Assembly: GCA_965205855.1 (NCBI GenBank)
Contig: OZ242184.1
Span: 928,001 to 992,000, forward strand
Length of the DNA: 64,000 bases
From: Thermodesulfobacteriota bacterium
Lineage (GTDB): Bacteria > Desulfobacterota_D > UBA1144 > Nemesobacterales > Mycalebacteriaceae
Reading direction: 5' to 3'
A model generated the notes under the pieces. It made no database searches, was not told the DNA's origin, and saw only the letters and a program-made list of their open reading frames with translations. The translations under genes were made by a program, and so were the position numbers. Shown here in pieces: positions 749 to 56,611 of this stretch. How positions within the stretch are numbered: the first letter of the stretch is position 1; the number at the start of each line of letters is the position of its first letter.

Positions 749-1003
749 TCACTCTGCGGGAGAAACGACCGAGACGGTGTTTCTTTTTCCTTTGCGGAAT
801 TTCACAACTCCGTCTGCAAGAGCAAAAAGCGTCCAGTCCCGTCCGGTTCCGACATTGTCTCCGGCGTGAAAAGAAGACCCTCTCTGGCGGATGATGATGT
901 TTCCCGCTTTGACGACTTCTCCGCCGAATTTTTTAACGCCGAGCCGTTTGCCCGCCGAATCTCTTCCGTTTCTTGAACTGCCGCCGCCTTTTTTTGTGGA
1001 CAT
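749..1003 (-). CDS. rpmA: 50S ribosomal protein L27
   Basis: [13 protein letters not shown]...[10 protein letters not shown] signature; follows rplU. Confidence 0.98.
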
Positions 1004-1015
1004 TCTCTGTCTCTC

Positions 1016-1333
1016 CTACCCTTTTATACCGGTTATGCGAACCGATGTGTATCTCTGCCGGTGTCCGGCTTTAAGTCTGTATTTTTTGCGTCTTTTGAAT
1101 TTAAAAACGGTAATTTTAGGTCCTTTCTTCTGAGAGACGATTTCGCCTTTAACTTCCGCTCCGTCAACAACGGGAGTACCCACGCGCGCCTCACCCTCTC
1201 CGTCCGAAACCATAAGCACATCGGGAAATCCGATCGTGTCTCCGGGGCTACCCTCGATTTTTTCTATGTCAAGAACATCTCCGGATTTGACCAAGTACTG
1301 TCTGTTTCCTGTTCTTATTACTGCCTGCTGCAT
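1016..1333 (-). CDS. rplU: 50S ribosomal protein L21
   Basis: AVIRTGNRQYLV...KFKRRKKY...GHRQ signature; canonical rplU-rpmA pair. Confidence 0.98.
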   Translation of the reverse strand: MQQAVIRTGNRQYLVKSGDVLDIEKIEGSPGDTIGFPDVLMVSDGEGEARVGTPVVDGAEVKGEIVSQKKGPKITVFKFKRRKKYRLKAGHRQRYTSVRITGIKG

Positions 1334-1357: not shown

Positions 1358-2116
1358 TCAATTATGCCACAAAAAGGGATGGAGTGTCAAACTATACGGC
1401 GACCGCCTGATAGTCGGGGAGTTCACCCATTGTTTTCCCTCAAGAGCGCGTCCCGTCTTCTTTTTGTTCACACCGCCCCATTGTTTGAAGAAAAACGGAA
1501 CCCCGCTTTCAACGCAGTTGTCCCTGATTTCCGTAACCCATTCCTCTTTCATCGGTCTTGCGCCGGGGCCGGACTCTCCACCGACAATGACCCAGTCTAT
1601 GCCTGACAAATTGAGGTTTGGAAACGGGGCAAGCAACGGTTCAAGAGAAAGAAACTTCACGCAAGCATCGGTCTGTTTTAAAACTTCTGTACGGGAAAGA
1701 TATTTCTCGGACTCTACGCTTGTTCCCATCCAGATGTTGGAAGTCCAGTGCAGGTGTTTGTTCGCCTTCACAACCCTTTCCGGTCTTTTTGTGAGAACCT
1801 GAAAAGTGTGTTGAGATGCTTCGTTCATAACTTCAAAAACGGACATAATGAATTTTGCGGGAACATCCTTGTGGAACAAATCGCTCATTGAATTGACAAA
1901 AACTATTTTCGGTTTTTTCCATTTAAGCGGGTCTTTCAAAGTGTGTTCATGAGTGGTGAGTTTGAAACCGTTTCTGTATTTCTCCATCCCTTGAGCGTGA
2001 AGCCGCTTTGCCATCCGCTCGGCGTAGCAGTATTTGCAACCGTGGCTGATTTTTGAACAACCGGTAATGGGGTTCCATGTTGTGTGAGTCCATCCTATTT
2101 TGGAGGGTTGGGTCAT
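1358..2116 (-). CDS. DUF5131 / phage Gp37-Gp68 family protein (radical-SAM-like Cys motif)
   Basis: [68 protein letters not shown] motifs. Confidence 0.9.
1361..1390 (-). promoter_or_regulatory. Putative sigma70 promoter for rplU-rpmA
   Basis: Minus strand TTGACA (1390-1385), 18-bp spacer, CATAAT (1366-1361), 27 bp upstream of rplU. Confidence 0.55.
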
Positions 2117-4659
2117 TACTGTTTGTTGATAACACCGTTTATATCGTCCCGCCAGCTGTCTTCAAACATCATCCTGAAAGTAGCGGGCGTCTTATTGATG
2201 GCCATTTCGCCTCTGTCAAGGGCGATCCTGTATGTTTTTTCAAGCGTGTCGAGCAATTTTTTCTTGTAACTCGTATCTTCGCTGCCTTTCAGGTGGATGC
2301 CCTTTGTTTCCAGAATTAGCAGTTTTCCGTTATCTTTTCGGCAGGCCACAAAATCGGGATACACGCGCTGGCGTCGCCAGCCTTGCAGATAGTACGCTTG
2401 TCTTGCAGCTATTCTGTGCCACCAGTAGATGGCGTTGCTCTTATCCAGATAAAGCGCAAAATCCCGCTCCAGACCGTTAAAACTACTTTCATAAACAGGT
2501 TCAAAAAGGTTTTGCTGTATAGGTCTGCCATGTTCGCTCTGTAATGATCTTTCTTGACTGGAAACAAAAACCTCGAACGACTTGCTCAATTCGTAGTCCA
2601 GTCGCTGGTCGGTCTCAAGGTGAAACCGAATCACATTCCGCCCAACCTTTTCCCGAAACACCGCTTCGGCCTCGTCGTCTATGGCCTTGTTCACGCGGCG
2701 GCTCAATTCTTCGGAAAGGTAAATTCGGTTATTCAACAATTTGCTTTCATCGTGTTTCCTGTTTTTATGTGTTTGAATAAACCCCTCCGCCATGCGCGCC
2801 GCCTGCCACGGATTGGGCACCTTGTCCACAAGCCGCCGAACAAAATAATCCACGCTCAGCCGCTTTTCGCTGTCAGGGATTTGTTCCGAAGCCTTAACCT
2901 GCCCTTGAATGTCCACCGTGGTTTTGATCTCCTGAGTGATGTCTCTATCATCCAGATTCACCGCTGCGCCCGCGTCAATGGTGTCCCAATCAATCGCGCT
3001 TAATATATCGCGGTCGTAATCAATGGGGCGCCAGGTGCGCCCCGCTTTGTGTAACACCTGCGGGAGAAAAATTTTCAATGGCCGGTATTTACCACGACGT
3101 TTGACGGTGGTCGGTTTCGGTGCATCGCCCTCGCCATGCCCGTGAACAAAATCGCCAAGCCCGGTCAGCCCTTCATTCTCCAGGCCGGCCTTCACGCCTT
3201 TGATCGCCTTGCCTACGACCTGATTATAGCAATAGATATAACACTGGTTCAGCGCATCGCCTTGTGCGATTCTGCGTGCATGGGGTTGCCGCATCACCCG
3301 ACCGACCATTTGCGTGATGGCGGTGGTTGCGGTGGTGTTATCCAGCAAGGCAAGCAGATATGCAAACGAGCAATCCCAGCCTTCTTTCAGCGCGTCTTTG
3401 GTGATAATCCAGCGCACCTCGCTTGTCTCGCTCAACAAATCCTCACCCGCAAGTTCCTTGCGTTCCGATGATTGAATCCTGATGTGATTCTCCGGCACAG
3501 CAAGATTTTGTATCAGGTATTCGCGCGCATCCTCCGAATGAATTTTTCCTTGCCCTCTTTGTTTTGCGCCCGTTCTTTCCACCCTGACCAAAGCGATGGG
3601 TCGGATATGGCGGTTTTCCTGTTCCTGTAATTTTTGCGCCGCACTTTCAAGCTCATCCAGTTTTTCCTGTGTTTTGGCAAGCGTGTGTTCCCAGTCGGAA
3701 TTGCTGAAACTGTGAATCTCTATCGGCAGTTTGATCATCTCCTCGTCCTGGAGGTCGCGGCCCGATGTGTTGACCAGGATATTGCTGATGCCGATTTTCG
3801 GCGTGGCGGACAGTTCAAGCACAAAACGGGGGTTGAGCCGGTTGACGGATTTGACAAACTCCTGGTTGTTTTGATTATTCGGTCCATATGCTTTATGCGC
3901 TTCGTCCAAAATCACCGTGGGACGAATCAGTTTCAGCACATTGATCAGGCTTTGCTTAACCCAGTCGCCGGGTGCATTTTTCTCCAGGTCGGGATGGTGT
4001 TCCGAAAGCGTTGCATTGGCCGCCGCGTCATCCTGCTCGGGAAAAAACGACATATACCCGCTGCTGTCGCGGAATATTTTGAGAAACTCCCTGTTCTTTT
4101 GCCGGTTGGCGGAGGGTAGCATCAGCAGCATAATGCAAAGATAGTTTTCGGTATCCTGTCGGGTAAAGCGGTCGGTTTTTTGCAACAATTTGACCCTGCC
4201 GCCAGACATATGTTCGAGCATCTGCCGGTAGGTATGTTCGCGGGTGTGGAACGCCTGGCGGGTCTGCTCGTAGATCGCCCGGGTCGGCACAATCCACAAC
4301 ACAAAGCCGGTATCCCGCTTGATCCGCTCAAGCGTGGCCACGCCCAACAGCGTCTTGCCGCCGCCGGTCGGCACCTTCAGGCAAACATGCGGGATGGGTT
4401 CGCCGGATGCCGCAGTGCGGGAAATGTAGCCGGGAACTGCCATGTCACCGTCTTGGGAAATGCCGGGGAGGATATTTTGATCTTTCAGCGCCTTCCAAGC
4501 TAAGAGGGGATAGTTTTGCAGTTCTTCAGGAATATCAATCCCCGACTCTTCAAGAGCTTTGCCCGCCTTTTCACTAGTCAGCCGCGCTTCCTTGAGCGCG
4601 TCCAGCCAGCGGTCTAACTGTTCAAGAGCTTGTTGCTGATAGTTTTTCAGGGAGAGCAT
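2116..4659 (-). CDS. res: Type III restriction enzyme Res subunit (SF2 helicase-like ATPase plus PD-(D/E)xK nuclease)
   Basis: Start reassigned to MLSLKNYQ at 4659; Walker [35 protein letters not shown]-terminal YPDF...LETKG. Confidence 0.88.
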
Positions 4660-4660
4660 A

Positions 4661-5218
4661 TCACGGATTTTTTGAGTCAGTACTGTCTGAATTATTTGGC
4701 AAATTGATGATTTCAACAGGCACATTCCTTTTACCAACTGCAAGACCGACAGCGTAGTTACGGATAATAGTTTGATCCATTTCCATATCCGCATAGCCTT
4801 GTGGATAGTACGAACCCCTTAGAATTTCCATCTGTTCTACCTTAAAATCTAGCACCTTGGCCATTGAGCTAAGCATCTCCGTGAGCAATTCCATTTGCTC
4901 CTTGCCGAGTCGTTCATAGTGCGAACGAGAATCATTTTCTTCGTTAGGCCTCTTAGCATGCGTTTCACCATAATGCTTGCGGAGTGCTGCCCATTTTTCT
5001 ATAACTTCTTTATGCTTAACAAATTCTATCTCAACCAGATTAATGGCTCCGACATAATCAGGTGATAAACGCGCATTTCGTGTACGCATTAACGTCTTGA
5101 ATATATCCATTTTTCGCGCCTTTTGTTCGCGCCATCTGTCAAGAAGACCGTTAACCCAGACAGCTGCGCAAGGACCGATTAAGATGGCTGCAATGGTGAT
5201 GATAGAATATGAATTCAT
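4661..5218 (-). CDS. Membrane-anchored hypothetical protein, DUF6680-like
   Basis: N-terminal hydrophobic helix IITIAAILIGPCAAVWV, then IFKTLMRTR...AINLVEIEF and YYPQG; AT-richer than its neighbours; family assignment by recognition only. Confidence 0.6.
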   Translation of the reverse strand: MNSYSIITIAAILIGPCAAVWVNGLLDRWREQKARKMDIFKTLMRTRNARLSPDYVGAINLVEIEFVKHKEVIEKWAALRKHYGETHAKRPNEENDSRSHYERLGKEQMELLTEMLSSMAKVLDFKVEQMEILRGSYYPQGYADMEMDQTIIRNYAVGLAVGKRNVPVEIINLPNNSDSTDSKNP

Positions 5219-5220
5219 GT

Positions 5221-6860
5221 TTATCTTATACCCTCATATGGTAATTGGGCAAAAGTTATCCCCATCTCGGTTAATGCTTTTTGTCCCATGAATTTGTGAG
5301 TGGCGAACACCACCGCGGTTTTCTTTTTTGCCTTGGCCTGTTTGGCGATGCGTTCGGCGCGGGTGCTGTTCAAAGCGGAATCCGCACTGCGCAGAAAATC
5401 AAGGTTCGGCTCGTAGATCAGGTAAAACATTTTGTCACCTGCTTCATAAAATAAACCGTCTTTGCCACGCCTTGTTTTCGGGTTGAGTTTATGCGGCGAT
5501 TGTCCGCTTGCGGTATAGATCAGATGGCGGGCAAAGGTTTCATAGCCCGGCAGGTTCCTGCCGGTGAGCATTTTTTCAATGCTGATTTCATCGCCCAGTG
5601 TGCAATAGGCAAAACTGCCGCCCAGTCCGTTTTTTAGGTTCTCATCCTTTGCTTTTGGTATGCCCTTTATCACACGGCGAACGCGCTCGGCGGTGATTTT
5701 GTCGGCGTAGTCTTCGCATTCCACCAAGATAAATTTGCGGTTGCCGCCGTCTTCCTTGTTCAGCGCAAGCACGGCGTGGGCAGTGGTGCCGGAACCGGCG
5801 AAGGAGTCGAGGATAATGGCGTTTTTTGTCGTTGCCAGTTGTAAAATCTTTTTCACAAGGGAAATTGGTTTGGGGTTTTGGAACTGATTAGAACCAAACA
5901 CCGTCCTCAACTCGATTGTGCCGTTGGTTGTTGTACCTACATCATCCCACCAAGTGCTAGGCGTTAACCCCCTTCGGCGTGCCTCTGACAAAAAACGTTT
6001 GCGCTGAGGTCTGGAACTATTTCTCTTTCCGAATACGATTCTATTGTCTGCAAGAAGCTCCTCAAATTTGTTCAAATCGTTTTTCCAGCAATTACCTTCA
6101 GTGGGGTAAAATATTTCTTTTGTTTTAGGGTTTCTTATCGGATACATCTGATTAGGTCGAACCCCACCAGCCTCAAATGGATCCGCCTTCCATGGGCCTC
6201 TCGGATCATTATCAGGATTTTTGAATCCTTCTAAAATGGCAGGAAGTTTGAAATCTTTTCTAATGGTTTTTAATACATTCAGTTGTTTAGCATAAGCTAT
6301 ATTATGAGTGTGTGATATTGATACTAATGCAGGATTTGTAATTGATTTTGTGCTATGCCACACAAAATCTGCAACAAAATTCTCCTCCCCAAAAATCTCA
6401 TCCATGACCATCCGCAGGCGGTGCTGTTCATTGTCGTCGATGGAAATAAAAATTACGCCATCTTCGGCCAGCAATTCTCTTAACAACTGCAATCTTGGCC
6501 ACATCATGCACAGCCATTTGTCGTGCCGCTCCAGGTCTTCGCCATCCACCGGACTTTTGCCTTTCAGCCACGCCTTCATCATCGGGCTGTTGACATTGTC
6601 GTTATAGACCCATTTCTCATTGCCGGTGTTGTAGGGCGGGTCGATGTAAATGCAGTTGACGCGGCTGGCATAGCGCGGCAGCAACGCCTTGAGCGCGTGC
6701 AGATTGTCGCCGTGGATAATCAGATTGTCATCAAGGGAAGGGTTACCCCCCCATTTTTCGCTGAAAGAGATTTTTTAGTGTCTATCTCAAGTGTCCTGGA
6801 CGGAACAGTCAGGTGGTGCGCATAAATGAGTTGCTTCCCTTTGAAATCAATTGTCGGCAT
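5221..6860 (-). pseudogene. mod: Type III R-M Mod subunit (N6-adenine MTase), out of frame at a G7 tract (possibly phase-variable)
   Basis: ATG at 6860 gives MPTIDFKGKQLIYAHHL..; the frame changes at C7 (6746-6752) into ..NLIIHGDNLHALKALLPRY..IYIDPPYNTG..LDSFAGSGTT. Span is 1640 nt, 1 short of a multiple of 3. Confidence 0.85.
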
Positions 6861-7017
6861 TGAAAACCCCGTAAATCAGTTTGATATTGGCTTTGAAGAT
6901 ACCCGATTTACTCCCCCAACCTAAACCCCTCAACCTCCCGATGCACCGCCCCTTCCCGTCTCAATTCACTCTCCATCAAACAAACTCTTTCAGAAGCAAA
7001 ACCAAGTTCAAACTGCG
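6854..7017. repeat. thpR-3'-end repeat copy A (164 bp)
   Basis: Identical by eye to 9675-9838 and homologous to the thpR 3' end and downstream bases starting at 10620. Confidence 0.95.
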
Positions 7018-7517
7018 CCCGCGGTGACATGGAGAACCGGATCAAGGATCAGCAGTTGGATTTGTTTGCGGATCGCACCTCTTGTCACCGCTGGTGGCCC
7101 AACCAGTGCCGGCAGTTGCTGTCAGGGTTGGCTTACACGTTGATTGAGGGATTGCGGCGCCTTGCACTACAGGGCACCGAACTGGCCAAAGCCAGTCCTC
7201 ACAGGATCAGGCTGACACTGCTTAAAATCGGTGCCGTGATCATCCGCAACACGCGCCGCATCCGCCTACTGATGAGCAGTGCTTATCCCCATCAGGCGTT
7301 GTTCCGCACGGCAGCCTATCGGCTCAACTCCCCATAAACCCAACCCAGTGCTGCCCCGGCATGTTGATAAACAATGGGGGTAGGGGGAGTTGCGCCCGAA
7401 ATCTGTGAACAACGAAAGAATTGATCAAAGAACAGGCAACTGCATCATATGATGCATCGACAGGGATGGCGCTACCGAAAAATCGACCACCACCGCTTCA
7501 CTCATGAAATATCCGGG
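7012..7517 (+). mobile_element. IS1380-family remnant (3' part of transposase plus right end)
   Basis: CARGDMENRIKDQQLDLFADRTS..RIRLTLLKIGAVIIRNTRRIRLLMSSAYP (ORF 7029-7337); ends in CTCATGAAATATCCGGG, resembling an IS1380 terminal repeat; 5' part missing. Confidence 0.85.
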
Positions 7518-7528
7518 ATAGTCTCGCT

Positions 7529-8668
7529 TTATTTTCGGATGAGAAACAGAAATTCTTTATTCGGATCGCTGGATTCCCGCAACCACTCATTTGTCCATTT
7601 CATGGCGGCCATCACATTTTTTTTATACTCAATTTTTGCGCTATCCACAATTTCTCCGTTACGCGTTATCACCTCGTTTAATTCCTCCGCGGTTGCTCGT
7701 CCACCGGAACTGTAAGAGAGCAAGATCCATCGGCAAGGAGTTTCCTTCAGCAAACGCTCTATGGCTTCCACCACAACCAATCGTCCTGATTTGCTTCTAC
7801 GAAATTCCTCGAACACTGAAGTCGCCACTTTATCGGATGTGTCTTTTCTGCGGAGGGACTTGCCAAATAGCACGGGATGATCATTTTTACATATGGTCGT
7901 CCACAAATGATAATATGAAGCGTACCGAACCCTTGAAGGTGGCATTTTTTCATTGTTTGACCCATACGGAGGATCAAAATAAGCAAGATCGGCGTCCGCT
8001 TCGGGAAGTACCTTAAAAACATCACCACACAGCACCGTGTTTTCGATTTCATTTTTCCACAACCGTGGCACTTTCAATTGTAAATTTTTGAATGAACGCG
8101 GCGACCAATCTTTTAAATAAGAAACAAAATGACCAAGAGTACTGTCTATCTCATTCAACCCTAAAATCAGGCTTGTCAATGCCACACTTTTGGAAACGTC
8201 ATCCAGCATCAAGGCATCGATCTCTCTCCTGATTGCATCAAGTTTTCTTGTATTTTTTTTCTGCCAAGGCTTTTTGGTTCCATCCTTCTGAATAGCATTA
8301 TGGCAAGTTCCAGAGCGAACATCACCACCGTAATTCTCAGTAAACCATCCGTCTTCCGGAGGAAGCGAATTTAAATGATCAATAAGAGGTTGGTATATTT
8401 TCGGGTTTTTTAAGTTTTTCAAATAGCACGTGGCAAAAATTCTTGACCATTCGGAAATATCATTTGATACCACGCGATATCCTGCTTGTGCAAAAGATTG
8501 ACTTACTCTGGTGGAGCCTGAAAAACCGTCAAAAATGCTTTTTGCTCCGGTCTGTTTTGACAGATTAAAAATATGTGGAAGCAGTTTCAGTTTTGAGCCT
8601 GCGTAATTGATGCCTTCGGTTTTTGGAACATCAATCCAATCACGAAAAATTTGAACTTGCCCTTGCAT
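7529..8668 (-). CDS. Adenine-specific DNA methyltransferase (D12-class / FokI-like), type II R-M
   Basis: INYAGSKLKLL, FDGFSGS (motif I), YFDPPYG (motif IV), ILLSYS. Confidence 0.9.
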   Translation of the reverse strand: MQGQVQIFRDWIDVPKTEGINYAGSKLKLLPHIFNLSKQTGAKSIFDGFSGSTRVSQSFAQAGYRVVSNDISEWSRIFATCYLKNLKNPKIYQPLIDHLNSLPPEDGWFTENYGGDVRSGTCHNAIQKDGTKKPWQKKNTRKLDAIRREIDALMLDDVSKSVALTSLILGLNEIDSTLGHFVSYLKDWSPRSFKNLQLKVPRLWKNEIENTVLCGDVFKVLPEADADLAYFDPPYGSNNEKMPPSRVRYASYYHLWTTICKNDHPVLFGKSLRRKDTSDKVATSVFEEFRRSKSGRLVVVEAIERLLKETPCRWILLSYSSGGRATAEELNEVITRNGEIVDSAKIEYKKNVMAAMKWTNEWLRESSDPNKEFLFLIRK

Positions 8669-9517
8669 TATGTAACTTTAAAGCGGGAAGCCTGCTTGAG
8701 TCTAACAATATCATCTTTCACTTTTGCAAGAGCCTCATTCTGGCCGAAATCAGAAGAAACAAGCGCGTGAGAAAATAGTTGGACCAAGATAGGATTGTGA
8801 GAATAATCAACCCATCCATTGGTTATGCTATCAAAATAGTTTAAACCACTTTTTGTATGAGTCCAAAGCCCTCGCTGGAGGGCATTGGCGGTTGCGCTTC
8901 CATAACGCACCTCGCAAATATAAGAATCGCTTGCATCGTAGAAACGATATACTGGGTGCTTTCTACCTTTCTTTTTTGTTTCTTTTACTATTTTCACCGT
9001 TTCAGTTTCAGCGCGGTGGTAATCGAAGACAAGAATATTACACTGTCGATTTTTTTCGTCATAAATTAATGGCAAAACATTTACATTGTAAAAATCCGAG
9101 AAAGCGGGGTCGGCAAGCACTCGTTGTACATTTTTCTTGCCCACTATTTCATCCCCCTCTTGTGCCAATCTCGGAAACATTTTGAAATTCTTGTCGGTTG
9201 AAAGTTGAAGGGGACCATCACCATACGCTTTGATGCTAACAGGAAATTCAGCTTCGGTTACTTCATTTATTATTTTGATGTCTTCTTCCCGAGATTTGGC
9301 TCTGTATAAATCTTTGCCAACATGGATCGAGCGAAAATCATACATACTACTGGTTGATAAATTCGGCTATGGCGATTTCTGCCAAATCTCCATGTGTTTT
9401 ATTTCCAATGAGGCGCATGGTGAAAATGTTGCTCAATGTCAAGATTATTAAATCCGGGCGTTTACTCGCAAGAAGCTTCAATCTCGAGATGAAATCTTTA
9501 TATGGATCATTTTTCAT
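8668..9517 (-). pseudogene. Putative type II restriction endonuclease split by a 1-bp insertion
   Basis: ORF 9347-9556 ends EFINQ*, and ORF 8668-9345 starts 1 nt later (CAG TAG T ATG). Removing one base gives continuous EFINQYMYDF. D..ISIK-like nuclease pattern; TAATG coupling to the MTase. Confidence 0.6.
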
Positions 9518-9674
9518 GTTTTTCGTTTGATGCCTCTGTTTTGGTATTTTTATCAACCTTCATTTTTCAGATCGTCGCATGAGCTTGGGTTGAGATGATT
9601 CGGTAGCGTCATCGAGAATTCATGTGTATCAATTGCTGTTCAAGTTTAACCCGTTTTGCCTGTAAATCACCCAA

Positions 9675-9904
9675 TCGGCATTGAAAACCCCGTAAATCAG
9701 TTTGATATTGGCTTTGAAGATACCCGATTTACTCCCCCAACCTAAACCCCTCAACCTCCCGATGCACCGCCCCTTCCCGTCTCAATTCACTCTCCATCAA
9801 ACAAACTCTTTCAGAAGCAAAACCAAGTTCAAACTGCGGCAATTCGGGTAGCTTCATCCTTTTTTTTATCCACCCTATCGTAACGTGCGACATAAAATCC
9901 CGTT
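9675..9904. repeat. thpR-3'-end repeat copy B (230 bp)
   Basis: First 164 bp identical to copy A; 9697-9904 aligns gap-free to 10620-10827 with 18 mismatches in 208 bp (hand count). Confidence 0.95.
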
Positions 9905-9958
9905 ATTGTAGGCTGCTGTTATGTGTAACGGAGTTTCATATGAAAATTCTCTGCTATG

Positions 9959-9992
9959 AGCAATTGTGGTCACTGGGATTCTCACAATTGCT
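9959..9992. repeat. 10-bp perfect inverted repeat (possible terminator for 10031-10441)
   Basis: AGCAATTGTG-14nt-CACAATTGCT. Confidence 0.45.
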
Positions 9993-10030
9993 GGTTGTGC
10001 GAGCCAGCCAGATTTGACAATGACTCAGTA

Positions 10031-10441
10031 TTAGTGCTCGCCCTCTTGATTAATTTGTTTCCACAAACTGCCGATAGCAAGTAGTGCTGGAATAATAAGT
10101 AGCACCACTACAATTGGCACACTTGATTTAATTACCTCTACATTTAATGCATATACGGTAATAACATCGGATATGTCCGTCAATAATCTGACAATTAATA
10201 TCGCTAAAAGTGCTTTATGAGACTTAAGGAATAAAGCAACTATTATCCCTATAACTACCATTACATTTCTTGTAATGTAAAGTTGTGTAACATAATTCAA
10301 TTCGGAAACCTCTGGTATGAAACCACTTGGGTTCATGGCCGTACCAGCTGAGAAGAAAAGCACTAAAGATATTTGTATTAGAACAATGACCCATACCCAA
10401 ATAGGTAAGAATCCATTGGTTTGACCATTTTTGTAATTCAT
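10031..10441 (-). CDS. AT-rich integral membrane protein (about 4 TM helices), unknown function
   Basis: 136-aa hydrophobic ORF with upstream AGAGG RBS; very low GC. Confidence 0.7.
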   Translation of the reverse strand: MNYKNGQTNGFLPIWVWVIVLIQISLVLFFSAGTAMNPSGFIPEVSELNYVTQLYITRNVMVVIGIIVALFLKSHKALLAILIVRLLTDISDVITVYALNVEVIKSSVPIVVVLLIIPALLAIGSLWKQINQEGEH

Positions 10442-10462
10442 ATTTGCAACCTCTTATTTTTA

Positions 10463-10619
10463 CCTAATTATCACTTAAACTAAGCAGAGTTTCAAGATAT
10501 TTTCCGGCATCGGCGGCGTTTTGAGCGCTGCATAAGCAAGTCTCGGTATTAACTCGCACAAATCAAAGCGACGATTGAAACGATACTGAAATTCTGACAA
10601 ATAACGCTGTGCGTATTTT
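10463..10619 (-). mobile_element. IS1595-family remnant (transposase C-terminus plus terminal repeat)
   Basis: Minus-strand translation KYAQRYLSEFQYRFNRRFDLCELIPRLAYAALKTPPMPE, followed by TAAGTGATAATTAGG end sequence. Confidence 0.75.
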
Positions 10620-10651
10620 TCAGTTTGATATTGGCTTTGAAAATACCCGAT

Positions 10652-11233
10652 TTACTCCCCCAACCTAAAACCCTCAACCTCCCGATGCACCGCCCCTTCT
10701 CGTCTCAATTCACTCTCCATCAAACAAACCCTGTCAGAAACAAACTCAAGTTTAAACTGCGGCAATTCGGGCAGTTTTATCCTTTTTCTTATCCGCCCTA
10801 TCGTAATGTGTGGTATAAAATCCCGTTTCTCCGGCTCAAAACCGATTGTCTCAAGTTTTGAGTCAATCTCGTCCTTGAGACTGAAAAACGCGTCCCCGGA
10901 TTCCGCAATCACCGCAAGCGTCTGCGTATAACGGCGGAGTATAAGCGCCTCAACCCCGTCCGTTGTGATGTCGAGCGGCACAAACCGCTTGCAACAACTT
11001 TCAATAACCCCGCACAGTTCGGGAATCAATTCGCGGCGCGTCTCTCCGAGAAACCTTAAAGTAATATGGAATTTTTCAGACAGCTCCCAACGCACATGGC
11101 GGAGCGAGCGTATTGCGGCGGAACGGGATTTTATCACCCTTTTTGCTTTTTCGGGAACTTCAAGAGAAATAAAAAGCCGGACGGTAGCGCTGTCAACTCT
11201 CAAGCTCAACATTCCAGTATGAGGCATCAACAA
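10652..11233 (-). CDS. thpR: RNA 2',3'-cyclic phosphodiesterase (2H family); true start probably 11203-11212
   Basis: RLFISL, two HxT motifs FHITLRFLG and PHITIGR, LMESEL. Confidence 0.9.
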   Translation of the reverse strand: MLMPHTGMLSLRVDSATVRLFISLEVPEKAKRVIKSRSAAIRSLRHVRWELSEKFHITLRFLGETRRELIPELCGVIESCCKRFVPLDITTDGVEALILRRYTQTLAVIAESGDAFFSLKDEIDSKLETIGFEPEKRDFIPHITIGRIRKRIKLPELPQFKLEFVSDRVCLMESELRREGAVHREVEGFRLGE

Positions 11234-11801
11234 AACTTACAAACGGCTCCCATTCTTTGTAGCGGATTGGGTGCGCGTAAATGTTTGCAAACGGTCCCCA
11301 CTGCGGTTCGGAGGGAATTGTGAGCAATTTCATCCTTGCCTGTTCGGGAGTTCTACCGCCTTTTCTGCGGTTGCACGAGCCGCAGGAGCAGACAACATTG
11401 TCCCATCTGCTTTCTCCGCCGTGCGCGCGCGGAATAACATGGTCTATCGTAAGCTCGGTTTTGGAAAAATGCTTTCCGCAGTATTGGCATTTACCGCTGT
11501 CTCTGCGGAATATGTTGAAGCGCGTAAATCTCGGACGCTTTCTGTGAAATCCGCTGTAACGGAGCAGGATTATAACCCTCGGCGCTTTGATGATCCTTGT
11601 AACGGTTCTCACATAGTCGCCACGCCCTCCGGCGGCAGAGGCGGCGGAAACCTCCGCCCAACTCTCAAAATCAAAAGTCTCGTAGGTTTTTGTTACGGCT
11701 TTCGCCTCGCCGCAATAGAGCATCACAAATGCCCGTCGCAAATTGGTAACGGAAACGGGCATATAGTTTTTGTTCAAAACCAGAACCGGCGAACTCAACA
11801 T
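11193..11801 (-). CDS. HNH endonuclease (McrA-like)
   Basis: VLVLNKNY, NIFRRDSGKCQYCG..TIDHVIPRAHGG..WDNVVCSCGSCNRRKGGRTP. Confidence 0.9.
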   Translation of the reverse strand: MLSSPVLVLNKNYMPVSVTNLRRAFVMLYCGEAKAVTKTYETFDFESWAEVSAASAAGGRGDYVRTVTRIIKAPRVIILLRYSGFHRKRPRFTRFNIFRRDSGKCQYCGKHFSKTELTIDHVIPRAHGGESRWDNVVCSCGSCNRRKGGRTPEQARMKLLTIPSEPQWGPFANIYAHPIRYKEWEPFVSFVDASYWNVELES

Positions 11802-15188: not shown

Positions 15189-15476
15189 TCATTCTCCGGT
15201 GTGAGCACCCTCCCCGAATCCGCTCTCCACAAAGCCGGATATCTGCTCGGAGGCTTCCTGAGCATCGCCGCCCGAAACCCTGATATCAATCTCCGTGCCT
15301 CTTGTGGCGCCGAGGGAAAGAATTCCGAGAATGCTTTTGCCGTCCACTTCGTATCCGTTTTTAATTATCTTCACATCCGATGAAAATCTGCTTGAAAGTT
15401 TGACAAAACCCGCCGCCGCTCGCGCGTGCAAACCGAGGGTGTTGACAATTGTGAGGGTTTTGTTTATTGAATCCAC
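15189..15476 (-). CDS. ptsH: Phosphocarrier protein HPr
   Basis: GLHARAA (His15) and VDGKSILG (Ser46); GTG start after AGAGG. Confidence 0.93.
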   Translation of the reverse strand: MDSINKTLTIVNTLGLHARAAAGFVKLSSRFSSDVKIIKNGYEVDGKSILGILSLGATRGTEIDIRVSGGDAQEASEQISGFVESGFGEGAHTGE

Positions 15477-15561
15477 TACTGTTGCCTCTGTAAAAATACG
15501 ATGACGGATTATACACAATTATACGGCAAGCATTAAAAACCGTGGCACGGCAAGTTACAAT

Positions 15562-16647
15562 GTGAGCAGTATGAGCATCAAAGAAATATGTGGCAAGGTA
15601 ATGGACTGCGAAAGACTGCGCGGCGATGACGGACTTGAACTCCTGCGCGGTGCGACCCTGACGCAACTCGGTGGCCTTGCGTCTTTTTGCAGACAGAGGT
15701 GCAACCCCGGCAAAACCGTAACCTTCATCTGCGACACAAACCCGAACTATACAAATGTGTGCGACACAGAATGCCTTTTCTGCGCCTTCTGGAGACCCGC
15801 GGATGCGTCGGACGCCTACACTCTTTCAGTGGACAGGCTCATTGAGATGATGAAAACATCTTATCACAACGGAGCCACAACGGTTTTGCTTCAGGGCGGT
15901 CACAATCCCGATATCGGAATTGAGTATTACGAGAAAATTGTGAGGCGCGCGAGAGAGGAAATTCCCGGTCTTCATCTTCACGCCTTTTCCGCGCCGGAAA
16001 TAGCGGCAATCGCGAAATACGAGGGCATCAATACGCGGGATGTGCTGTGGAGACTCTGGAATGCCGGACTCAGAACAATCCCCGGCGGTGGCGCGGAGAT
16101 ACTTTCCAACAGAGTGAGAAAAAAAATCAGCCCGCTCAAGATAGATGCGGACAAGTGGATTGGAATTACAAAAGAGGCACATGAAACCGGATTCAAAACC
16201 ACCGCGACAATGATGTTCGGTCATTTAGAGCGGGACGAAGACATTGTGGAGCATCTCACGAGGGTGCGCGATTTGCAGGATGAAACGGGCGGTTTTCTCG
16301 CTTTTATACCCTGGATATTCAAGCCTTCCAACACCTTCCTTGAGCGCAAAATTTCCGCCGAAATAGGCGGGGAACGCTATTTACGTGTGCTTGCGGTGTG
16401 CCGAATCTTCCTTGACAACTTCAGATTTATTCAGGGCTCGTGGTTCACTCAGGGGTTTAAAATCGGGTCTGCGTCAATGAATTTCGGCGCGGACGACCTT
16501 GGGGGAACATTGTATGAGGAAAACGTGCTCAGATGCGCGGAGAACAGAATAAAGGCGAGTGCCGGAGAGATTTCCGGAATGATAGAGCGCGCGGGCTTCA
16601 AGCCGGCGCGGAGAAACACTTTTTATGAAATCATACCCAAACCCTGA
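15562..16647 (+). CDS. mqnC: Cyclic dehypoxanthinyl futalosine synthase (radical SAM, menaquinone futalosine pathway)
   Basis: NYTNVCDTECLFCAF, LQGGHNP, IPGGGAEIL, TATMMFGH, FGADDLGGT. Confidence 0.85.
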   Translation: MSSMSIKEICGKVMDCERLRGDDGLELLRGATLTQLGGLASFCRQRCNPGKTVTFICDTNPNYTNVCDTECLFCAFWRPADASDAYTLSVDRLIEMMKTSYHNGATTVLLQGGHNPDIGIEYYEKIVRRAREEIPGLHLHAFSAPEIAAIAKYEGINTRDVLWRLWNAGLRTIPGGGAEILSNRVRKKISPLKIDADKWIGITKEAHETGFKTTATMMFGHLERDEDIVEHLTRVRDLQDETGGFLAFIPWIFKPSNTFLERKISAEIGGERYLRVLAVCRIFLDNFRFIQGSWFTQGFKIGSASMNFGADDLGGTLYEENVLRCAENRIKASAGEISGMIERAGFKPARRNTFYEIIPKP

Positions 16648-17390
16648 TGGCTGAGCGTATACAGAAACTGCTCGCGGGCGCCGGAGCGGGCTCGCGGAGA
16701 CAGGCGGAAAAGTTGATAAAATCCGGCGCGGTTTTTGTCAACGGAAAGATTTGCAAACTCGGAGACAAAGCGGAGCCGCATGACGCCATTACAATAGACG
16801 GAAGGGAAATTGATTGTAAAACAGACCCGTCCGAAAAACTCGTAATCGCATACAACAAGCCCGCCGGAAAAATCGTGAGCAGAAGCGACCCTCAAAACCG
16901 CCCCGTTGTTTTTGATGATTTGCCCCCGTTAAAGAAAGCCCGCTGGGTTTGTGCGGGGCGGCTGGACGTGAATACATCGGGGTTGCTGCTCTTCTGTTCG
17001 GACGGACTGCTTGCGCACAGGCTTGCTCATCCCTCAAGCGGAATTGAGCGCGAATATATGGCGCGTGTGCGCGGAAACACGGGTCCGGAAACGATTAATA
17101 AACTGCTCGCGGGCGTTGTTCTTGACGGCAAAAAGGGGCAGTTTGAAAAAATTACAGCAGTTGCCTCAAAGAACAAAAGCAACAAATGGTTCAAGATAAT
17201 TGTACAAGAGGGAAGAAACAGGTTTGTCAGAAGAATGTGGGAAAGTTGCGGGTGTTCGGTCAGTCGCTTGATAAGGGTCAGGTTCGCAACGGTGAGGCTT
17301 CCGAAAAAATTGCCCACGGGAGCGTCGGTATTTCTTGATGGGAAGGAAATCCGGAAGATTTATAAAGCCACGGGGGTTAATACGGGTTAG
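16647..17390 (+). CDS. rluB: rRNA pseudouridine synthase, RluB/RsuA family
   Basis: S4 domain ERIQKLLA..SRRQAE, NKPAG, GRLDVNTSGLLL, EGRNR. Confidence 0.85.
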   Translation: MAERIQKLLAGAGAGSRRQAEKLIKSGAVFVNGKICKLGDKAEPHDAITIDGREIDCKTDPSEKLVIAYNKPAGKIVSRSDPQNRPVVFDDLPPLKKARWVCAGRLDVNTSGLLLFCSDGLLAHRLAHPSSGIEREYMARVRGNTGPETINKLLAGVVLDGKKGQFEKITAVASKNKSNKWFKIIVQEGRNRFVRRMWESCGCSVSRLIRVRFATVRLPKKLPTGASVFLDGKEIRKIYKATGVNTG

Positions 17391-37204: not shown

Positions 37205-37393
37205 ATGGTTAACGACAAGGCGATTTTTGATGTGCGGATAGTGAAAAGAAACATTTCTGAGGGCGCTACCTCAGAAAAAAATTATCAAAAAAAACTCAGT
37301 GAACTGAAAGACTCAAGCGACAACGCGGAGTTTTTCTCGATTGAAGAAGAATCGGTTGAAGAACCGGAAACACCGGAGAAAGAGACAGAATGA
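37205..37393 (+). CDS. Small acidic hypothetical protein
   Basis: 62-aa ORF with GGAG RBS; FDVRIVKRNI..Y..L..L.D; ATGA-coupled to the next gene. Confidence 0.65.
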   Translation: MVNDKAIFDVRIVKRNISEGATSEKNYQKKLSELKDSSDNAEFFSIEEESVEEPETPEKETE

Positions 37394-37599
37394 GAAAGTG
37401 GCAGTATAAAATTGTGCCTCTAAAGAGTATTTTTGAGAACTCATCCGACCACAACATAGACGTATCGATTGAGGAAGGAAAAACGAAATCGGAAAAGACA
37501 AGAAGCGGAATGGAGAAAAAACTGAATGAACTAGGAAACGAGGGCTGGGAACTTACCTGCGCGTTCGGAGAGTTTGTTCTTTTGAAGAAAGAAGAATAG
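37390..37599 (+). CDS. DUF4177-like small protein
   Basis: KWQYKIV...LNELGNEGWEL. Confidence 0.75.
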   Translation: MRKWQYKIVPLKSIFENSSDHNIDVSIEEGKTKSEKTRSGMEKKLNELGNEGWELTCAFGEFVLLKKEE

Positions 37600-37841
37600 A
37601 AACGGAAATAACAGACTTCACGCCAATTCAATCAATTTGAATGGCGGAGTTTTGCCAGCCTGACACGCTTCTCTTCAGCCATAAGAAAAACCTTACTCCC
37701 ACTCAACTGTCTATCTGGCGTAACACACTGTAAACATTACGCTTTATTTTTACTTGGTAACAAAACAAGCCTTTCTCAATATAATCAATGGACTGCCAGT
37801 AAACACCTATTGCTCTATTCCGATGCTTTTGAGTTCCTTCC

Positions 37842-38318
37842 TCAAACAGTCCCAAACGTGTTGTCTTTTTTGAAATGAAGAACAGTGCCAGACTCGATGC
37901 CTAATATCTGGAAGTTGAAACGCTCTTCTCCCCTCTTTGCACTGTCTAATGCTTGGGAGTCTTGAGGTGTTTCTACGATTTCACCTGTCGGAGTAATATT
38001 CTTTCCGTCCATTACCTCTGCAATCTCAAGAAGTGATTTTGCTCTTTCTGGGGTGGTGTTGAAAAACTCTCTATTCTGTCTAATGCGGCAGTCGTCCAAA
38101 CCTTGATGCATTTTTTTCTAAATGACAGATGCGTCTGGAACTTCCACTGCGTAAAAACACTCAAATGGAAGCGCTACGCTAGTGTTGTTCAGTTGTTTGA
38201 TGCGCTGTTCAAGATTGTCAGTAATTTCAATCTTTATTGTGTCAGGCATACATTCACTAGTGAGTATGCAAACGATTGGCGTCTTCCAACGCCCCGACTG
38301 GAAAAAGTTTGTTACCAA
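37842..38318 (-). pseudogene. GIY-YIG/T5orf172-domain pseudogene
   Basis: IKI..T..LEQRIKQL..TSVALPFECFYA, in-frame TAG at 38118-38120, then KKMHQG..R..NREFF; AT-rich and truncated. Confidence 0.7.
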
Positions 38319-38526
38319 GTGCTTAGCAGTATATTTAAAATACTAAAGAACTGATTTAACTACGTTTTTAAGATAATACATCATTCTACAGAGTAGCCTG
38401 TCTACTTGGCAAAAAGGTTAACAACTGAGAAAATTAAGTTATTGAATTTATTACATAAAAAATACAGAAAATTAAATCGTCTACCAATTTAACTATTTGT
38501 TTTTATTGTATTTTTATGACCGTGGG

Positions 38527-40074
38527 TCATTCCCACTCAATAGTCCCCGGCGGTTTTGTGGAAATGTCATAAACCACCCTTCCCACTCCTTCAATCTCGT
38601 TGATTATGCGCGTTGAGGTTTTTTCAAGAACCCCGGAAGGGATCTTCGCCCAGTCCGCGGTCATTCCATCTGTGCTTGTTACGGCTCTGAGCGCGATAAC
38701 ATTGTCGTAGGTTCGTTTGTCTCCCATAACCCCGACAGTGCGCACCGGAAGAAAAACCGCAAAAGCCTGCCAGATGTCGCCGTATATTCTGGCATTGCGT
38801 ATCTCTTCAATAAATATGGCGTCCGCGCGTTTGAGCACGTCAAGAGAATCAGGCGTAACCTCTCCGAGAATTCTTATCGCAAGCCCCGGCCCCGGAAACG
38901 GATGACGGTCAAGGATGATGGACGGAAGGCCAAGATGCCGTCCCACATCCCTCACTTCGTCCTTGAAAAGCTCGCGCAGTGGCTCAACAAGCCGCAGATT
39001 CATCTTTTCCGGCAATCCACCCACGTTGTGATGGCTTTTGATGGTAACGGCGGAACCGTGCGCGCTCGCGCTTTCTATCACATCCGGATAAAGCGTTCCT
39101 TGAGCGAGAAAATCGGCGTTTTCTATGTTTTTCGCCTCGCGCTCAAAAACCGATATGAACTCACGCCCGATAATTTTCCTCTTTGCCTCCGGATCTGAGA
39201 CGCCCTTGAGCTTTTCAAGAAAACGCTCGCGCTCATTGACGCGCACAACTTCAATTCCCGCTTTGTCAAACATCTCAACAACCTCGTCGCCCTCATTAAG
39301 ACGCAAAAGCCCGGTGTCAACAAAAATACAGACAAGCGATTTACCCACCGCTTTGCGCACAAGCGCCGCTGTTACGGAAGAATCAACCCCGCCCGAAAGC
39401 CCACATATCACGCGCGACGGGCTAATTTGCTTGCGAATTGCGGCAACAGACTGCTCAATAAACGCCTCGGATGTCCATAACTTGTCGCAACCGGAGATTT
39501 TGAACAGGAAGTTGGAAAGCATCTTCATTCCCTCGCGAGTATGCACCACTTCGGGATGAAATTGAGTTCCAAATATCTTCCTTGCCGGGTATTTGATGGC
39601 CGCCGCGGGAGTATTGGAACTTCTTGCGGTAACAACAAAACCTTCAGGCAATTGCGCAACCTTGTCTCCGTGAGACATCCATACATCGGAAGAGCCGGAA
39701 AAACCGGAAAACAACCCGTCCGTATCGGTTATGTCTATGGATGCGGGGCCAAACTCTCTTTTGTAAGAACTCTCAATCTCTCCTCCAAACATACGGACGA
39801 GAATCTGCATCCCATAGCATATTCCGAGAAACGGAACCGGAATCTCAACAATCCCACCGTCAAGCTCCGCCGCACCCGTATCCCATACGCTTGAGGGGCC
39901 GCCCGAAAGAACTATCGCGCGGGGGGATATTTTACGGACTTCATCCGCCGTAATTGTATGAGGTTTTATCTCCGAGAAAACGCCTTGCTCGCGGATGCGG
40001 CGGGCTATCAGTTGTGTATATTGAGACCCGAAATCAATTACCAGAACGGTTTGTTTCATATTATTGTCCACCAA
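38527..40074 (-). CDS. guaA: GMP synthase (glutamine-hydrolysing)
   Basis: DFGSQYTQLIARR, GICYGMQ, SGGVDS, KPPGTIEWE. Confidence 0.98.
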   Translation of the reverse strand: MVDNNMKQTVLVIDFGSQYTQLIARRIREQGVFSEIKPHTITADEVRKISPRAIVLSGGPSSVWDTGAAELDGGIVEIPVPFLGICYGMQILVRMFGGEIESSYKREFGPASIDITDTDGLFSGFSGSSDVWMSHGDKVAQLPEGFVVTARSSNTPAAAIKYPARKIFGTQFHPEVVHTREGMKMLSNFLFKISGCDKLWTSEAFIEQSVAAIRKQISPSRVICGLSGGVDSSVTAALVRKAVGKSLVCIFVDTGLLRLNEGDEVVEMFDKAGIEVVRVNERERFLEKLKGVSDPEAKRKIIGREFISVFEREAKNIENADFLAQGTLYPDVIESASAHGSAVTIKSHHNVGGLPEKMNLRLVEPLRELFKDEVRDVGRHLGLPSIILDRHPFPGPGLAIRILGEVTPDSLDVLKRADAIFIEEIRNARIYGDIWQAFAVFLPVRTVGVMGDKRTYDNVIALRAVTSTDGMTADWAKIPSGVLEKTSTRIINEIEGVGRVVYDISTKPPGTIEWE

Positions 40075-46415: not shown

Positions 46416-46489
46416 GCGGGAGTAGCTCAGTTGGCCAGAGCATTTGCTTCCCAAGCAAAGGGTCGCGGGTTCGAGCCCCGTCTCCCGCT
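46416..46489 (+). tRNA. tRNA-Gly(CCC), CCA not encoded
   Basis: GCGGGAGTAGCTCAG..TTTGC-TTCCCAA-GCAAA..GGTTCGAGCC..CTCCCGCT. Confidence 0.95.
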
Positions 46490-52757: not shown

Positions 52758-53857
<1,100 letters not shown>

Positions 53858-53874
53858 CGAAACAACAACCGGAA

Positions 53875-53947
53875 TGGAGGTGAGCGGGTTCGAACCGCCG
53901 ACCTCCGGCTTGCAAAGCCGGCGCTCTCCCAACTGAGCTACACCCCC
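53875..53947 (-). tRNA. tRNA-Ala(TGC)
   Basis: GGGGGTGTAGCTCAG..CCGGC-TTTGCAA-GCCGG..CACCTCCA; G3-U70 pair. Confidence 0.95.
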
Positions 53948-53967
53948 GTGGTGCCTTCAAAATTCAA

Positions 53968-54042
<75 letters not shown>

Positions 54043-54054
54043 CGCAAAGGGCAA

Positions 54055-54083
54055 AGTGTATAAACAATCGGGTGGAGTGTCAA
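54055..54083 (-). promoter_or_regulatory. sigma70 promoter for the Ile-Ala-Ala tRNA cluster
   Basis: TTGACA (54083-54078), 17-bp spacer, TACACT (54060-54055), 12 nt before tRNA-Ile. Confidence 0.7.
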
Positions 54084-54095
54084 AAGAAAACGGTG

Positions 54096-54620
54096 TCATG
54101 CAAAACTGTTGATTGAGCGTCCCGTGTATTCACACGCTTTCAAAACAACATGAGCGCACGCCTTCGCGTCTTCAAGCGCGTCGTGATGGTTGAATAAAAT
54201 GCCAAGGTTTGAGCATAAGAATTTAAGAGACGCCCCGCTGTTCAAAATACGGCTTCCCGCAAATGCGCTACGGGCAATCTGAACGCTGTGCATCCATTTG
54301 CCGCAGATTGATGCAACCCCATATTTCTGCTTTGCCTGGTTGACTGCTTGGAAGTCAAAAAGTGTATGGCTGATTACAATGCGGTTTTGAAGTTTAGAAC
54401 GGAGGGCACCGGAAATTTCCGCAAAGGTCGGATAGTCCTCAACATCTTCGGGACAGATGCCATGAATTCCAATATTGCCCTCTTCAAAATGTTCTTCGGG
54501 ATTTATAAGCGTTGACCATTCGTCCGCAAAAACACCGTTGCGAACCTCAACACCGATTTGGCAAATGCTCCCTCGGCTGTGGTTGGCGGTTTCAACTTCT
54601 ATGGCGGTGAAATTGCTCAC
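54096..54620 (-). CDS. DEDDh 3'-5' exonuclease (DnaQ-like), possibly degenerate
   Basis: FTAIEVETAN, IHGI, SHTLFD, HHDALEDA. Confidence 0.75.
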   Translation of the reverse strand: MSNFTAIEVETANHSRGSICQIGVEVRNGVFADEWSTLINPEEHFEEGNIGIHGICPEDVEDYPTFAEISGALRSKLQNRIVISHTLFDFQAVNQAKQKYGVASICGKWMHSVQIARSAFAGSRILNSGASLKFLCSNLGILFNHHDALEDAKACAHVVLKACEYTGRSINSFA

Positions 54621-54687
54621 GGAAGAGAATTATACACGACAGCAATTTGACATCATAACGCTATGACACTTTCCGGAGGCATGGAAA

Positions 54688-54915
54688 ATGGAAAAAAGAA
54701 CTGTCTATTTTGACGCAAAACTTGCGCGTGAGCTTCGCCTGATAGCCGCCGGAAATGACACATCGGTTTCCGTCATTATCAATAATGTCTTAAAAGACAG
54801 ACTTGCCAAGGATGCGGAGAATTATACGATTGTTGAACAACGCAAGAATGAGCCCACAGTTCCGCTCGAAAAAATTCTGAAAGACTTCAAAAAAAAGTGG
54901 CAATTTTTGAAATGA
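54688..54915 (+). CDS. CopG/ribbon-helix-helix antitoxin-like regulator
   Basis: KRTVYFD..L..LRL.AA..DTSVS.IIN..; GGAGG RBS. Confidence 0.7.
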   Translation: MEKRTVYFDAKLARELRLIAAGNDTSVSVIINNVLKDRLAKDAENYTIVEQRKNEPTVPLEKILKDFKKKWQFLK

Positions 54916-54948
54916 CGGGCGGACAAATCCAACAGAAAAGCCTTTGCC

Positions 54949-54970
54949 AACTGAAAAGCACATACGACAG
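54949..54970 (-). other. 3' arm of the 16S pre-rRNA processing stalk
   Basis: Reverse complement of 56649-56670 with 21/22 matches. Confidence 0.8.
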
Positions 54971-55051
54971 ACGAACCACAAAACCGTTTCATTCAAACGA
55001 TTGAATTGTCTTACTTGTTTACTCTTTATGAGTAAAAATTTACTCCGTGAG

Positions 55052-56611
<1,560 letters not shown>

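Follow-up and report, generated by a model that had tools for sequence, protein, structure and literature searches.

How the 3' end of one housekeeping gene came to be present three times, with restriction-modification (R-M) genes and pieces of insertion sequences (IS) lying between the copies, is the question raised by the thpR locus of a Thermodesulfobacteriota bacterium (assembly GCA_965205855.1, contig OZ242184.1, positions 928,001 to 992,000; this whole stretch of 64,000 nucleotides (nt) is called the window, and all coordinates refer to it unless a related locus is named). The gene thpR encodes an RNA 2',3'-cyclic phosphodiesterase. With moderate confidence, the arrangement is explained by two separate insertions, each made through a homologous anchor in thpR and an illegitimate join. 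Such a locus would be a case of defence genes coming in by an established integrase-free route, and not a novel system of cassettes.

Three copies of the thpR end and the DNA between them

Comparison of the 64-kb window with itself by BLAST detected three copies of the thpR end, all in direct orientation, which confirmed the original prediction on this point. Copies A (6854-7017) and B (9675-9838) are identical at 164 of 164 positions (E 2e-80), B (9697-9904) and C (10620-10827) match at 190 of 208, with 18 differences and no gaps (E 5e-80), and A (6876-7017) matches C (10620-10761) at 133 of 142. The number of differences between B and C and the C-terminal peptides previously quoted for them were correct as well. 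Since the E-values are near 1e-80, a chance origin of the copies is excluded. All other repeats detected within the window are tRNA paralogues. Copy C forms the 3' end of a thpR gene that is intact (TIGR02258, 102 bits against a cut-off of 65.7), while copy A also carries the first 7 nt of the type III methyltransferase gene mod (ATG at 6860).

The three copies bracket two inserts, not three, because no further copy lies behind the type III operon. Different cargo had been predicted behind each copy; the type II R-M genes, the IS1380 stub, the IS1595 stub and the type III genes were all found, but the operon was rejected as a third cassette and is best read as a resident of the interval. The insert between B and A is 2,657 bp long and is flanked by the 164-nt duplication. 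It contains about 110 bases which may be a second IS1380 end, a type II restriction endonuclease (REase) gene, a methyltransferase (MTase) gene and an inverted IS1380 3' stub. The insert between C and B is 715 bp long, with a duplication of 208 nt (91% identical), and is made up of an IS1595-family stub, a gene for a 136-aa protein and 126 bases without an identified match. Defence genes, namely the MTase and a frameshifted REase, are present in the B-A insert only; the C-B insert contains neither an R nor an M gene.

On the minus strand the order is thpR with copy C, the 715-bp insert, copy B, the 2,657-bp insert, copy A, the type III operon, DUF5131, and rplU and rpmA. The features are the following (L001 is the homologous locus of a related genome, described below):

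11193..11801, minus strand: HNH-domain gene, conserved upstream flank (Pfam HNH; syntenic in L001)
10652..11233, minus strand: thpR, intact (TIGR02258 above cut-off; PF02834)
10620..10827, minus strand: copy C, the last 176 nt of thpR and 32 nt downstream (self-BLAST)
10462..10619, minus strand: IS1595-family 3' stub, about 46 last transposase codons and the right end, cut at copy C (tblastn)
10031..10441, minus strand: gene for a 136-aa hypothetical protein, intact, DUF4267-like, 35% GC, foreign (homologues, Atlas clusters, GC)
9905..10030, no strand assigned: remaining end of the 715-bp insert, whose plus strand tentatively resembles the start of a lipoprotein gene with a frameshift (six-frame translation)
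9675..9904, minus strand: copy B, comprising a variant 3' end of thpR (176 nt), a 47-nt spacer and 7 nt from the start of mod
9567..9674, minus strand: tentatively, the 3' end of another IS1380-type element in inverted orientation
8668..9517, minus strand: type II REase gene, split by a frameshift at ~9347 (PADLOC PDLC03568)
7529..8668, minus strand: type II D12-class N6-adenine MTase, intact open reading frame (ORF) (PF02086; PDLC03342, E 7e-162)
7012..7517, plus strand: IS1380-family 3' stub with right end, first 6 nt overlapping copy A (PF13701, NF033539)
6854..7017, minus strand: copy A, comprising 110 nt from the 3' end of thpR, the spacer and the start of mod, equal to B 9675-9838
5221..6860, minus strand: type III mod gene, with a change of frame in a G7 run (PADLOC MTase_III; tblastn matches in two frames)
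4661..5218, minus strand: DUF6680 gene inside the type III operon (PF20385)
2116..4659, minus strand: type III res gene, open ORF (PADLOC REase_III, E 7e-213)
1358..2116, minus strand: DUF5131 / PDC-M41B gene (Pfam, PADLOC)
749..1333, minus strand: rplU-rpmA, conserved downstream flank (Pfam; rplU syntenic in L001)

The start of thpR may lie about 21 nt later than given, as in the 186-aa database protein P0001.

Junctions and origin of the duplications

The two duplications share neither boundary, their ends being 66 nt apart on the 5' side and 22 nt apart on the 3' side, which argues against a fixed recombination site, i.e. the core of an attachment (att) site. Similarity to IS1380 begins at 7012 and copy A ends at 7017, giving an overlap of six bases. 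These lie in the codons of a C-(A/G)-R-G motif found in both of the IS1380 relatives compared; six of the six bases match the relative from P. putida and five of the six the one from Marinobacter. The probability of finding at least six matching bases at a junction by chance was roughly estimated at ~0.0003-0.0016. Short microhomology at an illegitimate junction is an expected feature of homology-facilitated illegitimate recombination. One illegitimate join by microhomology, between A and IS1380, thus appears well supported; the 6-nt microhomology itself is established in part, as it is read from relatives of the IS and not from the true donor. The unequal boundaries, the location of insert ends within truncated IS and the microhomology at the A junction together point to illegitimate rather than site-specific joining.

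Pfam families of integrases and recombinases were searched in 115 frames, including 24 ORFs of the first 22 kb, 45 of the 48 frames selected elsewhere (all but three located over or beside the 16S gene) and 46 of the 74 short frames of the locus (the other 28 lie over the MTase and REase genes), and none was detected. The nearest tRNA gene, at 46416, is 35 kb from the locus. The claim that integrase and tRNA genes are missing from the neighbourhood is therefore upheld, for the integrase within the scanned frames.

Copy B was compared with the intact gene end. The differences between B and C correspond to 6.5 synonymous and 10.5 non-synonymous changes, with a dN/dS of 0.42, and B contains no stop and no indel. 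Using L001 as outgroup, 9 differences are derived in B and 7 in C, while 2 have no polarity. At three residues B keeps the state of the orthologues (7 of 8, 8 of 8 and 7 of 8, respectively) and C is derived; apart from the two conserved positions discussed below, B is derived at two further residues. Of the 18 differences, 15 fall within the first 98 nt and 3 within the last 110, a clustering (permutation p 0.027) of the kind seen in recombined alleles. The B/C pair looks allelic and mosaic, and the evidence leans towards B being a sister allele rather than a decayed copy, although the statistics are weak (p 0.03-0.12). Allele B was not found as a full-length protein among 34 ThpR homologues, the 8 closest of which are 61-66% identical, and none of these represents an allele from the same species.

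In the proposed mechanism, thpR would originally have been followed directly by the type III R-M operon. Broken foreign DNA would then have been inserted on two separate occasions, each producing a long direct repeat from the thpR end. The donor would be a related cell carrying other cargo already behind its thpR: on one side, homologous recombination would take place inside thpR, and on the other an illegitimate join, at a few matching bases, would connect the incoming DNA to a point inside the resident thpR. One whole thpR would be kept, and the old end with the old cargo would be pushed downstream. We infer the order of events, a donor of a related strain or species, and the route of DNA entry. 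The recombination route of the original prediction is plausible; it has published precedents (PMC2853133, PMC5361080), and the microhomology and the orthologue-like residues of B fit it, whereas the integron-like array that it was meant to build is not supported.

Several observations weigh against two insertions of this kind. Microhomology could be examined at two of the four junctions, those with reference IS relatives, and at the second of these, C/IS1595, at most ~1 base is shared among three relatives. No gene for competence or conjugation was found among the scanned ORFs of the window, and the scan of 15 loci yielded neither a genome of the same species nor an empty site. Compared with homologous replacement, such illegitimate events are less frequent by orders of magnitude (PMC5361080). 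The dN/dS of B against C is not significantly below 1 (Fisher p 0.12). B is derived at two residues which are invariant in 8 of 8 orthologues, beside the second HxT motif, as fits decay, and neutral decay could account for the changes specific to it (p 0.11).

The changes at invariant residues and the result for neutral decay also suit an origin in place, in which a duplication internal to the chromosome doubled the thpR end, IS elements and passengers came to lie between the copies, and deletions at microhomologies trimmed both the IS and the repeats. The C/B pair would then be old and diverged in place, while A/B would be recent and located inside a dead copy. Remnants of IS contain or border three insert ends, possibly four, the type II R-M genes may tentatively be the core of an inverted IS1380 composite, and IS-associated duplications are known experimentally, with IS copies between the duplications (PMC11708052). 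On the other hand, the changes are nearly symmetric between B and C, with four amino-acid changes on the side of the intact gene, B is free of stops and indels, and the neighbouring 136-aa gene is intact and 88% identical to its best homologue. Moreover, at the repeat junctions the 5' parts of the stubs are missing, and the right ends that remain face the cargo, so that these junctions are not ends made by a transposase. An origin in place is considered rather unlikely.

Concatenation of strain variants of a variable locus during assembly, with the frameshifts being sequencing errors, could be suspected from the complete identity of A and B over 164 nt and from the homopolymer in which one of the frameshifts lies; the organism is related to the uncultured Ca. 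Mycalebacterium, and a mixed-strain metagenome would be a plausible source. The copies, however, are incomplete and end at different points, one junction lies on a microhomology of biological appearance, B and C differ by 9%, and the REase frameshift is located outside any homopolymer. The proteins of the window lie on a contig of 1,401,274 bp, and the rate of indel errors looks low, since core genes with Pfam matches read as single ORFs. An artefact is accordingly judged distinctly improbable. Replacement of a gene end, with displacement of the old one, is the usual footprint of site-specific islands, and islands targeting trmE and dusA exist. The thpR 3' end might in the same way be an attachment site for tandem islands, whose integrase was lost or acts in trans and which restore the gene end upon insertion. 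The two non-coincident duplications and the absence of integrase families from the scanned frames speak against it: neither a constant crossover boundary, as among tandem att copies (the offsets being 66 and 22 nt), nor an element-encoded integrase was found. The inserts are fragments of 0.7 and 2.7 kb, and thpR is not mentioned in the literature found on gene-targeting islands. Of the explanations considered, tandem islands appear very improbable.

The thpR-rplU interval in relatives and comparison with known systems

Among named ThpR proteins, that of Ca. Mycalebacterium sp. is the closest (66% identical). Genomes were scanned with a ThpR alignment, and 15 loci were retrieved. One of them is close, L001, from a Thermodesulfobacteriota metagenome-assembled genome (ThpR 64% identical); the remaining 14, at 25-34% identity, are hardly informative. 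L001 is syntenic with the window from hisD to rplU and contains a single thpR, followed by different DNA; nucleotide identity is ~70-75%. In L001, a hydrolase gene lies between thpR and rplU together with opposite-strand genes for a BPTD_3080-family nuclease and a type III MTase; two unknown genes, TcmP and DUF5131 make up the rest of the interval. Its Mod is 25% identical to the Mod of the window and its Res can barely be aligned, identifying an unrelated R-M pair. The predicted variation of cargo between thpR and rplU was therefore observed, in one relative. Variation in the number of thpR ends, also predicted, was not: L001 contains no thpR-end repeats, and a second direct copy of the own thpR end was found in none of the 15 loci, for which 60 to 10,000 nt of downstream DNA were available. 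In locus L010, one 28-nt inverted match was detected.

A DUF5131 gene (PADLOC candidate PDC-M41B, 1358-2116) lies beside rplU in both genomes, with 84% nucleotide identity; the L001 region compared is 15340-16940. Its TcmP/PDC-M41A partner is present in L001 and absent from the window, where res abuts DUF5131. Two L001 genes, one between HNH and thpR (6314-6943) and the hydrolase overlapping the thpR stop (7506-8420), are missing from the window, so that both sides of thpR vary. A radical-SAM gene is split in L001 (781-1812) and forms one ORF in the window, which suggests indel errors in the L001 assembly.

Judging from two genomes, the thpR-rplU interval looks like an integrase-free defence hotspot, which swaps defence genes between lineages. 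The stacking of repeats is not lineage-wide, because L001 lacks them. A species-wide reading, in which the thpR 3' end is a recurring anchor where R-M modules are stacked and shed without an integrase, the A/B repeats would let the type II module excise or amplify, a variable G run would switch the type III system and the whole would be an integron-like array at the population level, is improbable.

Nobusato et al. (2000) is reportedly the work to cite for R-M insertion with long target duplication. The class was defined by Furuta, Abe & Kobayashi (2010; PMC2853133), who list R-M inserts between repeats of 24-423 bp (their Table 3), most of them in naturally competent species. Start or stop codons are often covered by the repeats, one target, a type III M gene, became frameshifted, and in a C. 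jejuni case the repeat pair matches at 195 of 208 positions and one copy equals the empty site; the mechanism was still a hypothesis in 2010 (PMC2853133). The thpR locus shares several of these traits, with type II R-M genes between 164-nt direct repeats and no integrase, repeats that span a stop and a start codon, a frameshifted type III M gene at the target and a diverged repeat pair (190 of 208). It differs from that class in having two nested events on one anchor, a second insert without an R-M gene, and IS stubs in both inserts, which the published screen excludes. In terms of the published definition, R and M homologues are present in the B-A insert and absent from the C-B insert; both inserts are shorter than 20 kb with duplications over 30 bp (2,657 bp and 164 nt; 715 bp and 208 nt); and, where no other mobile-element gene should lie in or beside the insert, truncated IS1380 and IS1595 transposase stubs are present. 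The B-A insert therefore works like the long-target-duplication class and is not filed as a member, given the mobile-element stubs and a scan of relatives that yielded no verified empty site.

Displacement by homology-facilitated illegitimate recombination is proposed for T6SS (type VI secretion system) immunity arrays of V. cholerae and for Rhs orphans (Kirchberger et al. 2017, PMC5361080), in a paper which itself draws the parallel with integrons. As in those arrays, an upstream anchor is conserved, the old 3' end and its cargo are shifted downstream, and no integrase is involved. The anchor, however, is a housekeeping gene here and a toxin there; no selection comparable to that for retained immunity is evident at thpR; and two steps in one genome contrast with up to six across many strains. 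Hotspots of horizontal gene transfer between core genes without mobile elements have also been reported (Oliveira et al. 2017, PMC5635113). The thpR-rplU interval is similar to these in its conserved flanks, its different defence cargo in a relative and the lack of a recognisable intact mobile element, its status as a hotspot resting on two genomes. The R-M systems located at rearrangements in one symbiont are mostly pseudogenised and have no flanking repeats (PMC4760077). Titles and term counts in the open-access literature yielded no report of thpR as an anchor, and no paper on competence in Dadabacteria was retrieved by the literature search.

The resemblance to integrons is superficial, consisting in co-oriented cargo that accumulates behind a fixed point. 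Unlike in integrons, no integron integrase was found in the scanned frames, there is no constant boundary, the cargo ends in broken IS pieces, and the repeats, inspected by eye, are thpR coding sequence and not hairpin sites. The idea of integron-like cassettes is not supported, the inserts being broken, unbounded fragments and L001 having no thpR-end repeats. Nor is a growing defence array supported: of the two inserts a single one carries defence genes, with a frameshift in its nuclease gene, and in this assembly the reading frame of the resident mod is disrupted as well. The original prediction had missed both of these frame changes, as well as the mod start in copy A and the count of two inserts.

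State of the cargo and surrounding DNA

The REase gene matches a single PADLOC model, PDLC03568, at positions 2-56 and 58-278 in different frames. Of 150 homologues, 65 span both frames, and the frameshift at ~9347 is not in a homopolymer. The MTase has distant plasmid relatives only (best 32%). Plasmid searches with the DNA of 10440-10640, with 9500-9690 and 9880-10040, and with the 136-aa protein gave no matches. In mod, an N-terminal motif found in 99 of 120 homologues is located in the upstream frame, the change of frame occurring at a run of seven G on the minus strand (plus-strand coordinates 6746-6752). The homologues P0162, P0156 and P0171 similarly lack the usual N-terminus near the G run. 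In P0162, from another genome, the called start lies at the same place and is followed by three glycines, a hint that the G run may be variable, with a homopolymer error being equally possible. The G run is thus a candidate for either a phase-variable switch or a recurrent homopolymer error.

For the 136-aa protein, 682 homologues were found among 733 candidates, the best being 88% identical. Look-alikes in the Atlas clusters are commonest in Pseudomonadota, and DUF4267 occurs in 24% of one cluster. Its gene (35% GC) had been called a membrane gene in the original prediction and is left here as hypothetical. The IS1595 stub has tblastn matches of 58-65% identity, most of them annotated as IS1595 transposase; both this and the IS1380 stub are too truncated to encode activity. 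The tentative second IS1380 end at 9567-9674 rests on a match of 14 of 15 nt to the 3' region of the IS1380 stub. Its score was reached by 0 of 1152 window tiles with lenient gaps and by 2 of 1152 with strict gaps, and the result depends on gap scoring. On the plus strand, 9905-10030 reads like a ribosome-binding site, a start codon and a frameshifted lipoprotein signal; this is tentative, and no plasmid match was obtained. A short motif just before these elements may resemble an integron cassette boundary.

A scan of 6600-11300 for promoters and terminators gave 12 promoter-like sites against 8.3 +/- 3.1 expected, with nothing usable, and Rfam detected only tRNAs and 16S over the window. At 53784-56611, an ORF with an exonuclease domain (54096-54620) comes after a 16S rRNA gene and before tRNA-Ile, tRNA-Ala(TGC) and tRNA-Ala(GGC). 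No 23S gene was found after these tRNAs within the window, as in an unlinked, interrupted rRNA operon. Directly 3' of guaA, which is an island target gene, a stretch of low GC content (42-44%) without Pfam matches extends over 37271-38529.

As it stands, with one genome, two events and partly broken cargo, the thpR locus is a neat example rather than a surprise. If two successive insertions are the correct reading, it would be a clean fossil of two insertions made without an integrase at the end of a single core gene, from a lineage that has received little study, and would provide base-level junction evidence for the entry of R-M systems into hotspots without mobile elements.

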